Notes under the pieces: model-generated
What the model saw: the letters and a program-made list of their open reading frames with translations, nothing else
Databases searched by the model: none
What the model was told of the DNA's origin: nothing
Program-made: the position numbers and the translations under genes
From: Planktothrix pseudagardhii
Lineage (GTDB): Bacteria; Cyanobacteriota; Cyanobacteriia; Cyanobacteriales; Microcoleaceae
Length of the DNA: 64,000 nucleotides
Reading direction: 5' to 3'
NCBI RefSeq assembly: GCF_904830925.1
Contig: NZ_LR882967.1
Location: 3,490,106 to 3,554,105 of the forward strand
In this document: one piece after another, positions 28,374 through 33,441 of the stretch
How the letters are laid out: each line of letters begins with the position of its first letter
Numbering within the stretch: the stretch's first letter is position 1

Positions 28374-28406
28374 CATAGGGGTGGCGAAAGTTGCCCCTAT
28401 GTTTTT
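28374..28406 (+). terminator. Rho-independent terminator downstream of psaB
   Basis: The hairpin CATAGGGGTGGCGAAAGTTGCCCCTATG is followed by TTTTT, 28 nt after the psaB stop. Confidence 0.55.
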
Positions 28407-28437
28407 GGGCTTCAGTCCTCTGTGAATTATATGAAAT

Positions 28438-28548
28438 CTTTAAATGTTTGCTACGCATATGTTTTCTGTAGAGACGCGCCATGGCGCGTCTCTACGTGGG
28501 GTTTAGGCAATTATCTGTAGTATCAATTTCAGGATTTCATATTATTAG
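28438..28548. repeat. Composite MITE-like repeat: CTTAAATGTTTGCTACGCAT + 28-bp perfect palindrome GTAGAGACGCGCCATGGCGCGTCTCTAC + ATCTGTAGTATCAATTTCAGGATTT module
   Basis: The same three-module arrangement recurs at 51398-51602 with an extra insert. The palindrome at 28468-28495 is perfect. Confidence 0.6.
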
Positions 28549-28594
28549 AAATCAGGTTAGGTATGATAGGGATGAACCCTGTTGTAACACCACA

Positions 28595-28849
28595 ATGAGC
28601 ATCAATCTCACCTCTGACCAAGAACAATTTATTCAAACTCAACTGGAATCTGGGAAATATCAAACCCCTGAACAAGTCATCTCAACTGCGTTGCGCCTAC
28701 TGGATGAATGGCAAAGGGCTGAGGCAGAATGGGTTAAAGATGTGGCTGATAAAATCGATGCTGCTGTATCCGCTACTGAAGAAAATCCTCCCCTTGATGG
28801 TGAAACTTTTATCAATGGGATTTTAGAACGGTTTAAGCCAAACCATTAG
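28595..28849 (+). CDS. parD: Type II antitoxin, ParD/RHH family (COG3609-like)
   Basis: MSINLTSDQEQFIQTQLESGKYQTPEQVISTALRLLDEWQR is a ribbon-helix-helix N-terminus typical of ParD. It is 84 aa and directly followed by a ParE-like start. The 5' part of the listed ORF from 28481 lies in the MITE and is rejected. Confidence 0.65.
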   Translation: MSINLTSDQEQFIQTQLESGKYQTPEQVISTALRLLDEWQRAEAEWVKDVADKIDAAVSATEENPPLDGETFINGILERFKPNH

Positions 28850-28858
28850 GATGCAACG

Positions 28859-28945
28859 ATGAGTCGCTATGTTATCAACATTCTAGCCAGCCATGACCTC
28901 AACGAGATTGCTGAGTATTTTGCCAACCACTATTTAACAGTTAGA
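28859..28945 (+). pseudogene. parE: ParE/RelE-family toxin, 5' remnant (first ~28 codons) truncated by the AT-rich insertion
   Basis: MSRYVINILASHDLNEIAEYFANH fits the ParE N-terminal consensus (M..Y.v.....A..DL..I..YIA). Beyond about codon 29 the reading frame is simply antisense to the C-terminus of the 28934-30451 gene and loses ParE similarity. Confidence 0.5.
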
Positions 28946-30451: not shown

Positions 30452-30697
30452 CTAAGATTTTCTAAACCTGGATTTGTCATGAGAGTTGTCCATCGGCATA
30501 AGTAAAAAAATGTTACCTTATGGCTGAGTTGATTGAAAAAATTTTATATATTTCAAAAATAAAAAACTATAGAATTTAAACAAAATTAATATTTTTCTCC
30601 CCCGTATTGACCCAAACCCCAACACAACCGTGATCCCTATCACACAACTCTAATTCGTATCAGAAGATAGTGGATTTACAGTATTTAGGCCACAACC

Positions 30698-33316
30698 ATG
30701 TTGACTGGAGAACGCAAGGCGGACAACCGGATGGATAGTCCTGAAACCGCTAGTGGAGTTATTCGCCTCAAACCCCAACAATATATCCATATTCTCGATA
30801 CCAATACCGGGGTCACTCGTTTGGAAGTTGGCCCCCAAACCATTACGCTTCGGGATCATGATCGCCTTGCCTTACGTCCAGAGTCCATGATCGTTGTCCC
30901 TCCTCGCTATTATTGCATCATTACTAATCCGGTTTTGCGAGATGAAGACGGTCAACCCTTAGCGGATCAACATGGTCAAATTCGCCTGCGCTATGGCGAT
31001 CAAGAAATTCGCTTTGCTCAAGATCCCTTTCCCCTGTACCCCGGAGAAGAATTAATCGGGGATGTTACCCGCCTGCACGTCGTTGAAACCAATCAAGCCT
31101 TACGGTTACGGGCACTGCGAGACTTTAGCGAAATTCAAACCCTAGACACCGAAGAACAAACCCTAGACCGTCGGGCTGGTGATGAATGGTTGTTTGAAGG
31201 GCCAGCCACTTATATTCCGCGTGTGGACGTGGAAGTGGTGGAAACGGTCAAAGCTAAAGTGATTAAACCCAACCAAGCTTTACGGTTACTCGCCCGCCAA
31301 GCTTGTGTGGATCGCCAAGGTCATCGTCGTCGGGCTGGAGAAGAATGGCTGGTGCGGGAGGAAGGGGCCTATCTTCCCGGTGTCGATGAAGAAGTGATTG
31401 ATATTATCAATGCCTATGTGTTAACCGAACGCAAAGCCTTGCATCTGCGAGCTAAACGCACGTTTCAGGATGTCTTGGGACGACAACGACGGGCGGGGGA
31501 TGAATGGTTAGTCACCTTAGCCGATGCAGAAATTCATATTCCCGATGTTTATGAAGAGGTGGTGGGGGAAGTTCAAATTACCACCCTGGATGATCATGAA
31601 TGGTGTGTGGTACTGAACCCCATTGACGAGACGGGTAGACCCCAATTGGGGTTACGGGAAGTGCGTCAAGGACGAACCTCTTTTTTCTTACATCCAGGGG
31701 AACGACTGGAAGCTGGAATTCAGTATATTTATATTTTAAGTGAGCAAGAAGCTTTGTTGTTACGAGCCAGAGAATCCTTTACAGAAGGTACGGGGGCAAC
31801 GGCTACAATCCGGCAACCGGGGGATCTGTGGATGATTACAGGGCCGAGGGATTATATTCCTCCGGTGGAAGTGGAAGTGGTTCAAAAGCGACAAGCGATT
31901 CCCTTAGATAAGAATGAAGGGATTTATGTACGAGATACGCAAACGGGGGAATTAAAGTTAGTTAACGGGCCACAAGCTTATATGTTGAGTCCCTATGAGG
32001 AATTGTGGGAAAAAGAACTTCCCCCTGTGGTGGAAGGGTTGCTGATGCAACAGCGAGATCCAATTGCCGATCGCAATGTTCAAGATGGGGATCTTCTGGT
32101 AACGCGGAAAACTCCACGCCCGCCCCGCAACAAAACAAGAGCCGTTGTTTTCCATGTTCCGCAAAATTCGGCGGTTCAAATTCACGATTATAAAAATCGC
32201 TCCGCCCGAACAGTTTTTGGCCCTGATTTGGTCATGTTAGACCCAGATGAAGCGTTTACGGTGTTGAGTTTGTCTGGGGGTAAACCCAAACAACCCAATT
32301 TGATTAAATCCTTGGCTTTGTTGTTAGGGCCGGATTTTATGACGGATATTTTTATCGTTGAAACCTCGGATCATGCCCGCTTACAGTTGCAACTGTCCTA
32401 TAACTGGTATTTTGACGTCAATCGTCATGATGAACAAGCGGCGGTGCGACTGTTTCAAGTGCCGGATTTTGTCGGGGATGCTTGCAAGGCGATCGCATCA
32501 CGGGTGCGAGGGGCAGTTGCGGGGGTGAAGTTTGATGAATTTCACCGCAATTCTGCTCGAATTATCCGCACGGCGGTATTTGGGACTGATGAAGAAGGAC
32601 GGGTACGGGAGGAGTTTCGATTTCGAGCAAATCATTTGGTGATTACAAATATTGATATTCAGACCGTTGAACCCGTTGATGAAGAAACTTTGAAAAGTTT
32701 GCAAAAATCGGTACAAATTGCCATTCAAATTACCACCGATGCCCAGGAAGCCGCCGCCCGTCACGATGCAGAACGAATTGAACAGGAGGCAAAGGCAAGG
32801 CTGGAACGCCAAATTATTGTCGATAAAAGTGCTGCGGAAGGGGAACGGCGGCAATTGTTAGCGTTTCAAGCGGAAAATGCTGCCATTGAGTCTACGGGAC
32901 AAGCCACGGCAGAAGCCAGAGCGAAAGCAGAAGCCGCACAAATTCAAGGAGCATTAACGGTGAGTTTGGCGCAACAGGAGGCCGAAGCGGCTCTCATTCG
33001 TTCAGAAGCGGAATTGGCGCAGTTACGGGCTAGACAGGAGACTGAACTGGCGCATCAGCAAGCGTTGATGAGTTTGGAAATTGAAAAAGCGCAACGGTTG
33101 GCGCAAATTCAAGCGGATGAGTTTCGGCAAAAAGTGGAGGCGATTGGGCCTGACACGTTGCGAGCGATCGCCCAAGCAGGGCCAGAACTACAAGTGCGTC
33201 TATTACAAGGGTTGGGGCTTCAAAGTATGTTAATCACCGATGGCAAAAGTCCGATTAATTTGTTCAGTACAGCCAATGGGTTAGTAAATCCCGCTTCCTT
33301 ACCCAATCAACCATAA
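30698..33316 (+). CDS. Major vault protein (MVP) homologue, full length (alternative start ATG at 30731, [13 protein letters not shown]...)
   Basis: It has MVP repeat domains and blocks identical or near-identical to metazoan MVP ([60 protein letters not shown]). The shoulder and cap-helix coiled coil are present and the C-terminus is ...[12 protein letters not shown]. It is 872 aa. Confidence 0.9.
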
Positions 33317-33326
33317 CGAATCGACT

Positions 33327-33366
33327 GCCCACACTTTTCTCAAAGTTAGTGTGGGTATTTTATATT
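33327..33366 (+). terminator. Probable intrinsic terminator after the MVP gene
   Basis: The stem GCCCACAC...GTGTGGGT has a 14-nt loop followed by ATTTTATATT. Confidence 0.45.
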
Positions 33367-33370
33367 CCAA

Positions 33371-33437
33371 GCTTAAATGTTTGCTAAAAATAATTGCTTA
33401 GATGACTAATCACTTTTTCCCTGTTCCCTGTTCCCTG
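33371..33437. repeat. Dispersed repeat module (CTTAAATGTTTGCTA..AGATGACTAATCACTTTTTC + CCCTGTT heptamers); inverted partner at 35901-35990
   Basis: AGATGACTAATC[A/G]CTTTTTC plus heptamers is present in the opposite orientation at 35958-35983, flanking the HD-GYP and pcd genes. Confidence 0.5.
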
Positions 33438-33441
33438 CTAT

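Follow-up and report, generated by a model that had tools for sequence, protein, structure and literature searches.

Flexible islands and defence-gene hotspots that lie between core genes are familiar from Escherichia coli, Vibrio, Pseudomonas and Prochlorococcus. Here we describe a comparable locus of the cyanobacterium Planktothrix pseudagardhii, contained in a 64,000-nt stretch of contig NZ_LR882967.1 (positions 3,490,106 to 3,554,105 of the forward strand; hereafter the window, whose own numbering is used for all coordinates unless another locus is named). The locus is a lineage-variable block of 9.7 kb between an oppC-like gene and an HD-GYP gene, and it carries a standalone variant psaB, a parDE toxin-antitoxin remnant, a swappable cassette related to PARIS defence systems, and a full-length major vault protein (MVP) gene. 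We read it, with a probability of roughly 0.8, as a flexible chromosomal region in which strains carry different accessory genes as a result of layered gains and losses and of cassette swapping. It is a fresh instance of the familiar flexible-island or defence-gene-hotspot type, and the mechanism is not new. For two of its genes, related cases have been described: bacterial MVP homologs include an Oscillatoriales group (bioRxiv 10.1101/872010), into which the window MVP falls, and a standalone alternative PsaB ("PsaB2") is known in Nostoc punctiforme, as stated in a passage of PMC4582080.

The block (23718..33445) spans from the stop codon of oppC to the stop codon of the HD-GYP gene, the two genes being convergent. 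The left anchor is an oppC-like ABC permease gene (22649..23716, + strand; Pfam OppC_N/BPD_transp_1), and the right anchor encodes a phosphohydrolase with GAF and HD-GYP domains (33442..35085, - strand; Pfam GAF and HD_5). For comparison, we searched a single genome of each species, using the HD-GYP protein as query, which yielded 80 loci, mapped the window proteins onto these by tblastn, added P. mougeotii and strain FACHB-1365 through exact look-up, and then aligned the DNA; ten related Planktothrix loci were compared. HD-GYP orthologs are present in 80 of the 80 genome loci, which were retrieved with this very protein as query, and the Pterin_4a gene on the other side of HD-GYP is detected in most of them, including Microcoleus and Tychonema. 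In these two outgroups, the genes downstream of HD-GYP are unrelated to the block.

The same core flanks enclose differing content in the relatives, with at least seven configurations between oppC and HD-GYP. The interval is empty in P. paucivesiculata PCC 9631 (locus L006), PCC 11201 (L007), UBA8402 (L005) and GU0601_MAG3 (L063). Specifically, DNA alignment shows that the homology of the P. paucivesiculata and PCC 11201 loci to the window ends at 23716/23717 and restarts at 33446, with the oppC and HD-GYP stop codons 5-8 nt apart, and tblastn finds the same adjacency of the two genes in L005 and L063. The metagenome-assembled genome (MAG) KTt_bin-1839 (L003) holds DUF29 and MVP only, while metagenome contig L097 holds parD and parE only, the latter frameshifted. 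P. tepida (L001) has the block of the window, without its miniature inverted-repeat transposable element (MITE) and with another cassette. FACHB-1365 (L087) has psaB, parD, a 4.8-kb cassette encoding a 1487-aa helicase-like protein, and MVP codons 1-99, and P. mougeotii (L083) has psaB, 99 bp of parD, a DUF2281-like open reading frame (ORF) with a NERD-UvrD helicase gene, and MVP codons 24-99. In the Lake Mendota Planktothrix MAG (L004), synteny is gone directly after the HD-GYP stop, so the same junction is also a rearrangement breakpoint; the sequence beyond it (L004 11642-21641) encodes a CHAP-domain protein, creatininase, DUF561 and others.

Within the block, positions 28927..30589 form a strain-specific cassette slot, whose content in the window is dissimilar to the cassettes of P. 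tepida, FACHB-1365 and P. mougeotii. Four genomes carry four unrelated cassettes between the parE stub and the MVP promoter: a fusion of AriA- and AriB-like genes in the window, a gene for a 412-aa hypothetical protein in P. tepida, the helicase-like gene in FACHB-1365, and the DUF2281-like ORF plus NERD-UvrD helicase gene (PADLOC C3a187, E 2e-58) in P. mougeotii. The right edge of the slot lies at ~30590 in the window, P. tepida and FACHB-1365 alike. The left edges are nested, at 28926 in the window, 28887 in P. tepida, 28861 in FACHB-1365 and 28628 in P. mougeotii, which suggests repeated events that ate stepwise into parE and parD. Measured over 28880-30605, the slot has a GC content of 31.6%, the minimum of the window at 1.7-kb size (next lowest 32.2%). 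The AT-rich ATPase island of about 30% GC that had been noted here initially is thus confirmed in composition, and in substance it appears to be one collapsed two-gene PARIS-like cassette in a swappable slot. The P. tepida cassette protein (L001 8491-9729, - strand, 412 aa) begins with a hydrophobic segment, continues with a long stretch resembling a coiled coil and ends in a hydrophobic C-terminus rich in Gly and Ala; it matches no Pfam or PADLOC family and forms a singleton cluster.

The sequences on both sides of the slot are informative about how its content may be exchanged. We compared the window with P. tepida (L001) over window positions 20263-28887 and 30590-43316, ~23 kb in total. 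Identity is 99.3-99.9% across most of the flanks and close to 99.9% over most of the total; right of the cassette, 12.7 kb contain 4 mismatches, and parts of the left flank are nearly identical as well. The MVP and HD-GYP proteins are identical between the window and P. tepida PCC 9214. Two tracts, at 22.0-24.5 kb and 27.5-28.9 kb, diverge by 3-7%. The 0.9 kb immediately left of the cassette is 94.6% identical between the window and P. tepida, and all four lineages are mutually 93.5-95.2% identical there. We read these divergent tracts amid near-identity as a mosaic of the kind typical of recombination imports. Cassettes would then be exchanged by homologous recombination with diverged donors, with psaB/parD and the MVP promoter region as the probable arms. 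Although they bear separate species names, P. pseudagardhii and P. tepida resemble a single population here.

The initial annotation, made from the sequence alone, had regarded psaB as a housekeeping gene with a hotspot of independent acquisitions just downstream of it. We consider this account unlikely. The quickest-changing part of the block (MITE, parDE decay and cassette slot) does adjoin psaB downstream, and psaB with its terminator is kept in four genomes, but five related lineages lack psaB at the locus, along with the two genes upstream of it, and the window gene is a variant paralog whose canonical counterpart follows psaA elsewhere. What survives of the proposal is the independence of the gains and losses; the stretch described initially (28374-33440) is the right half of a wider variable block, the true, conserved anchors are oppC and HD-GYP, psaB is cargo inside the block, and MVP is old at the locus.

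The psaB gene (26115..28346, + strand; TIGR01336 psaB, 1522 bits) has no adjacent psaA, and the genes upstream of it, a small divergent ORF and one for a FAD monooxygenase, are not the partners of a psaAB operon. Its product is 88% identical to the canonical 742-aa Planktothrix PsaB and is a standalone variant paralog, not the housekeeping copy. In PCC 11201, the one genome checked (L103), the canonical 742-aa PsaB gene lies directly after psaA, and this strain has no psaB at the block locus. The canonical motif SIVQAR(L/V)VGLAHF occurs in five solved PsaB chains with printed alignments and in the Planktothrix 742-aa PsaBs. The motif of the window clade differs, and the window protein reads SIVQGW in its C-terminal region in place of the conserved SIVQ(A/G)R. 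This substituted region presumably lies close to FX and phylloquinone in photosystem I structures. A Desertifilum member of the clade (L096) likewise has a standalone psaB, and the P. tepida copy is annotated "A2 2".

Divergent from psaB is an ORF for a small Cys-rich predicted membrane protein (25232..25558, - strand, 108 aa), which contains the motif ...PCxxCxFFTGxYxLKCTIxP... and belongs to no Pfam family. Its homolog in L096 (43% identity, E 1.5e-28) occupies the same divergent place next to the Desertifilum psaB (4111-4416, - strand, versus psaB at 5001-7232, + strand). The small protein may be a dedicated partner or regulator of the variant PsaB isoform. The remaining gene on this side of the block encodes a FAD-dependent monooxygenase (23758..25212, + strand; Pfam FAD_binding_3, E 6e-25), which among the compared loci occurs here in the window, P. 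tepida, P. mougeotii and FACHB-1365 and in no other.

The cassette of the window is a single 505-aa ORF, 100% identical to an NCBI protein of P. pseudagardhii. Residues 1-408 (29228..30451, - strand) correspond to an AriA-like AAA_15 ABC ATPase without H-loop (Pfam AAA_15 E 6e-14; PADLOC AriA E 3.5e-27), and the following segment (28934..29227, - strand; stop codon 28934-28936) corresponds by tblastn to the last ~100 residues of a DUF4435 protein of AriB type, joined in frame to the ATPase part. The homologs of the ORF are 428-435 aa long, match only its first 79%, and end in ...NENAQLIIATHSPDI, a region that is missing from the window protein. Similarity stops at ...LKAIRSLN, after which five of five aligned homologs have the H-loop segment ENAQLIIATHSPDI, deleted in the window. 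Walker A (GLNGTGKST), signature (LSSGEKQ) and Walker B (IFIADEPE) are retained, leaving the AriA motif set incomplete. At four of the four places shown for the Microcystis homolog, an overlapping DUF4435 gene follows, and in PADLOC this pair matches AriA (E 1e-36) and AriB (E 1.3e-21). The tail of the window ORF aligns to residues 184-279 of the 282-residue Microcystis DUF4435 protein with 47% identity (E 1e-24, tblastn). A separate downstream DUF4435/Toprim AriB is not found in the window; only the equivalent of these residues survives, fused to AriA, and on its own this tail has no PADLOC or Pfam match. A MAFFT alignment had hinted that the tail was a diverged H-loop region, a reading ruled out by its tblastn match to the C-terminus of the DUF4435 partner.

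Because homolog coverage stops within the ORF and the tail matches the DUF4435 C-terminus, the 505-aa ORF is best described as an in-frame AriA-AriB fusion formed by a deletion of ~0.64 kb. At the junction AriA reads IRSLN and AriB reads IRQLN, a likeness that suggests, from comparison with 55%-identical relatives, that the fusion arose by microhomology deletion. Since the H-loop and the Toprim half of AriB are gone, the PARIS-like system is most likely dead, a decayed defence remnant. The present annotation of the ORF as a 505-aa "AAA family ATPase" is therefore a problem, as it conceals a fusion pseudogene.

Left of the slot lies what the initial annotation had taken for a parD/parE remnant, and we find it to be one. 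The parD antitoxin gene (28595..28849, + strand, 84 aa) is apparently intact and encodes a ribbon-helix-helix antitoxin, with matches to PF03693 (E 2e-5; ParD_antitoxin, 25.2 bits versus a cut-off of 21) and to TIGR02606 (E 1e-9, under the cut-off of that model). A mechanical 122-aa ORF containing parD (28481-28849) begins inside the palindrome of the MITE; the gene itself starts with the ATG at 28595, in line with the P. tepida gene call. The parE ORF opens 9 nt after parD with MSRYVINILASHDLNEIAEYFAN, and of the toxin gene only a stub of the first 24 codons is left (28859..28930, + strand). The 28-aa fragment by itself matches nothing in HMM and PDB searches. A metagenome search with ParD shows that the same 24 codons open full-length ParE (PF05016, E 4e-16) after relatives of ParD in L097 and L098, to whose N-terminus the stub is 96% identical.

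The homology of the window parDE to L097 begins at 28544 and ends at 28926. Over this module, DNA identity to L097 (2950-3562) is 95.8%, while the oppC and HD-GYP flanks are only 80-83% identical. This difference makes parDE look mobile and implies that it moved laterally and recently into the same slot. The parE of L097 is frameshifted and its HD-GYP gene apparently fragmented, either of which could be decay or an assembly artefact.

Between psaB and parDE, the window contains two small non-coding features. An intrinsic-terminator-like hairpin follows psaB (28374..28401, + strand), with a 12-bp stem, a GAAA loop and a T5 tail, in agreement with the clean terminator described initially; it is kept in P. 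tepida, P. mougeotii and FACHB-1365. At the junction between this terminator and parDE lies a 110-bp MITE (28431..28540) that is missing at the site in the same three genomes. Relative to P. tepida, the window has 128 bp extra (28413-28540), within which we read the element as 28431-28540. Its ends, ATGAAATCTTTAAAT and ATTTCAGGATTTCAT, are terminal inverted repeats matching at 12 of 15 positions in a manual reading, and the repeat finder reports longer arms that are 74% complementary. A perfect 28-nt palindrome occupies the centre (28468-28495), and the single-stranded DNA adopts a single extended hairpin on folding (-20.9 kcal/mol, z = -5.95). A putative target duplication, ATTAT, is present at 28426-28430 and 28541-28545, with a single ATTAT in P. 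tepida. The element is thus small, non-coding and bounded by terminal inverted repeats and a target duplication, with an empty site in a relative, as expected of a MITE. It adjoins exactly the start of homology to the L097 parDE module (28544).

The MITE had initially been described as built of three modules. The element itself is confirmed, and its modular build is plausible because a second copy in the 64-kb window (~51395-51460) is partial, having the same left arm and palindrome (one mismatch in the latter) but another right arm. Neither module is present in the 96 loci compared. Tandem CCCTGTT heptamers occur beside the second copy (51520-51548) and in the spacer between MVP and HD-GYP (33317..33441), where they were read from the sequence at 33419-33437.

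The right part of the block is occupied by the MVP gene (30698..33316, + strand), which encodes a full-length homolog of 872 aa with the Pfam domains Vault, Vault_2, Vault_3, Vault_4 and MVP_shoulder. Residues 17-866 align to residues 3-852 of the rat MVP chain (E 6e-303), and human MVP structures are matched too, so vault repeats, shoulder and cap-helix region are present on one chain of ~860 aa. Upstream is a conserved region (30590..30697, + strand) that contains ATTGACCC, a possible -35 element; it is shared from ~30590 by the window, P. tepida and FACHB-1365, and only from ~30621 by the KTt MAG. MVP homologs with 75-78% identity are widespread in filamentous cyanobacteria, in neighbourhoods that in other genera are unrelated to that of the window. 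NCBI labels the cyanobacterial proteins 'colicin uptake protein' or 'colicin transporter' and JGI labels them 'major vault protein'; the former label misleads and presumably stems from a TolA-like coiled coil.

The gene had been singled out initially as GC-rich (~50%), and at 49.0% it is indeed the maximum of the window at 2.6-kb size (next highest 47.0%). Its GC content at third codon positions (GC3) is 0.43-0.45, versus 0.27-0.29 for its neighbours, in Planktothrix and the KTt MAG, whereas in Allocoleopsis and Planktothricoides the GC3 of MVP is not above that of its surroundings. It is therefore plausible that MVP is foreign to Planktothrix by composition. Its arrival would not be recent: MVP adjoins HD-GYP in a lineage that is ~15% diverged in DNA, and the KTt MVP (90% identical in protein) shows about the same divergence as the genes flanking it (OppC 94%, HD-GYP 91%), which marks the gene as old at this locus. 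P. mougeotii LEGE 06226 and FACHB-1365 share one MVP deletion of 2.4 kb, corresponding to window positions 30995-33436. The deletion leaves an MVP stub of 76 or 114 aa (L083 11596-11826, L087 11596-11940), annotated as hypothetical and running into the 3' end of HD-GYP.

Because MVP lies directly beside a slot through which cassettes of PARIS, NERD/UvrD and toxin-antitoxin type pass in turn, has a foreign composition and is deleted in some lineages, cyanobacterial MVP might be flexible-genome cargo tied to defence or to conflict with mobile elements. We regard this idea as decidedly doubtful. PADLOC analysis of MVP neighbours in other genera showed no consistent link between MVP and defence, the signals being weak, with one candidate match in Planktothricoides and none in Allocoleopsis. 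Should bacterial vault-like shells act in phage defence or nucleic-acid sequestration, this would be a testable ancestral vault function.

With the modules described, the block can be weighed as one mobile or integrative island that arrived once and has decayed since. We judge this very improbable, even with a block that is cleanly absent to within a few nucleotides in four lineages and that, at 41.8% GC, is slightly off the window average of 39.2%. An integrase, a tRNA or att target and terminal repeats are lacking: no integrase occurs among the Pfam-scanned window ORFs, no tRNA between 18 and 38 kb of the window in a tRNA scan, and no meaningful bounding direct repeats in the output of the repeat finder. 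An Rfam scan of window positions 22-36 kb likewise gave zero matches, with no vault-RNA-like or other known RNA. On these grounds a tRNA- or integrase-borne island was ruled out. A 27-nt direct repeat (28427 / 33360) was rejected as a pair of island ends, P. tepida having the same block without the left copy, which belongs to the MITE. Furthermore, the modules have separate histories, since MVP occurs without psaB or parDE in the KTt MAG and parDE occurs by itself in L097, the GC content of the modules spans 31.6% to 49%, identity to relatives is 95.8% in one part and 80-83% in another, and the cassettes are unrelated between strains. The third account, ancient fixed synteny in which the composition switches reflect expression level and amino-acid content, can draw on the GC content at first codon positions of MVP (0.64, the highest in the window and a reflection of amino-acid content), on the high GC3 of psaB, often seen in highly expressed photosystem genes, and on an ATPase GC3 of 0.23 that is inside the range of the other window genes, but it is already refuted by an oppC-HD-GYP content that differs in nearly every lineage compared, and the relatives do not show the identical gene order and composition that the initial annotation had named as the finding that would speak against a hotspot.

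Returning to the flexible region with layered gains, losses and cassette swaps, we infer the following order of events. A foreign-composition MVP would have come to lie beside HD-GYP before the split of the compared Planktothrix lineages. The genes for the FAD monooxygenase and the small Cys-rich membrane protein and the standalone variant psaB, as one unit, together with the mobile parDE, would then have been inserted between oppC and MVP. The space from parE to the MVP promoter would subsequently have become a swappable slot in which each lineage received its own cassette, mostly of defence type, here a PARIS-type AriA-AriB pair. This pair would have collapsed via the in-frame deletion of ~0.64 kb, apparently at the IR(S/Q)LN microhomology. 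Lastly, the 110-bp MITE would have been inserted at the terminator/parDE junction. The probable engine of this turnover is homologous recombination in the conserved flanks combined with illegitimate deletions.

Several points weigh against this reading or parts of it. Gains and losses are not firmly polarised, and some of the 'empty' states could be clean deletions, because the outgroups carry unrelated genes downstream of HD-GYP. The same right edge for three unrelated cassettes is not fully explained by flank recombination, and could instead reflect an unrecognised site-specific process. The fusion ORF is open over 505 codons and could yet have a residual or new function. The high GC3 of psaB and MVP could reflect codon selection for high expression, not foreign origin. 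Finally, the presence of a canonical psaAB in P. pseudagardhii itself is deduced from three things: the gene order in PCC 11201, a 742-aa PsaB recorded as 'MULTISPECIES Planktothrix', and the label 'A2 2' in P. tepida.

The locus displays, at nucleotide resolution, accessory-gene turnover without integrases in a bloom-forming cyanobacterium, through processes that are seen or inferred: cassette swaps by flank homology, a mobile parDE, MITE insertion and microhomology-type deletions. Its main interest lies in the presence/absence series of MVP, in the mobile variant psaB unit, and in the collapse of PARIS into one misannotated ORF. The natural pairs with intact MVP (P. pseudagardhii, P. tepida) and deleted MVP (P. 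mougeotii, FACHB-1365) suit a search for a bacterial vault phenotype. A further lead is the variant PsaB with an Arg-to-Trp change in SIVQxR, which travels with a conserved small Cys-rich membrane protein.

Compared with known systems, each module of the block has a recognisable counterpart and departs from it. Rat and human MVP align with the window MVP from one end to the other and share its series of Pfam domains. In contrast to the eukaryotic vault, no TEP1, vPARP or vault-RNA partners are seen (the last by the negative Rfam scan), and the bacterial gene belongs to a flexible region and is undergoing loss in some Planktothrix. By description, the variant psaB resembles PsaB2, which Magnuson et al. 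reportedly presented in 2011 as an alternative PsaB of N. punctiforme: both are additional psaB genes away from the psaAB operon, and both have substitutions close to the C-terminal region. Unlike PsaB2, the variant psaB is found in a host without heterocysts and within a block that varies between strains. The parDE remnant follows the layout of type II ParDE modules, with a ribbon-helix-helix ParD and a parE start 9 nt on as in its full-length relatives, except that the toxin is cut to 24 codons and the antitoxin is orphaned. PARIS consists of an ABC ATPase, AriA, and a DUF4435/Toprim nuclease, AriB. The N-terminal 408 residues of the window ORF match AriA profiles, its C-terminal 100 match the end of the DUF4435 partner, and the intact Microcystis homologs form overlapping AriA-AriB pairs; unlike these, the window genes are fused by deletion and lack the ATPase H-loop and the N-terminal catalytic half of AriB, making the ORF a remnant. 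As a whole, the block differs from described flexible islands in having no integrase, tRNA or satellite/prophage backbone and in carrying a photosystem I core paralog together with MVP, unusual cargo for an island. It shares with them a fixed slot between core genes, unrelated strain-specific cassettes of which several are of defence type (PARIS-like ATPase, NERD-UvrD helicase, toxin-antitoxin), flanks whose divergence resembles that left by recombination, and atypical composition.

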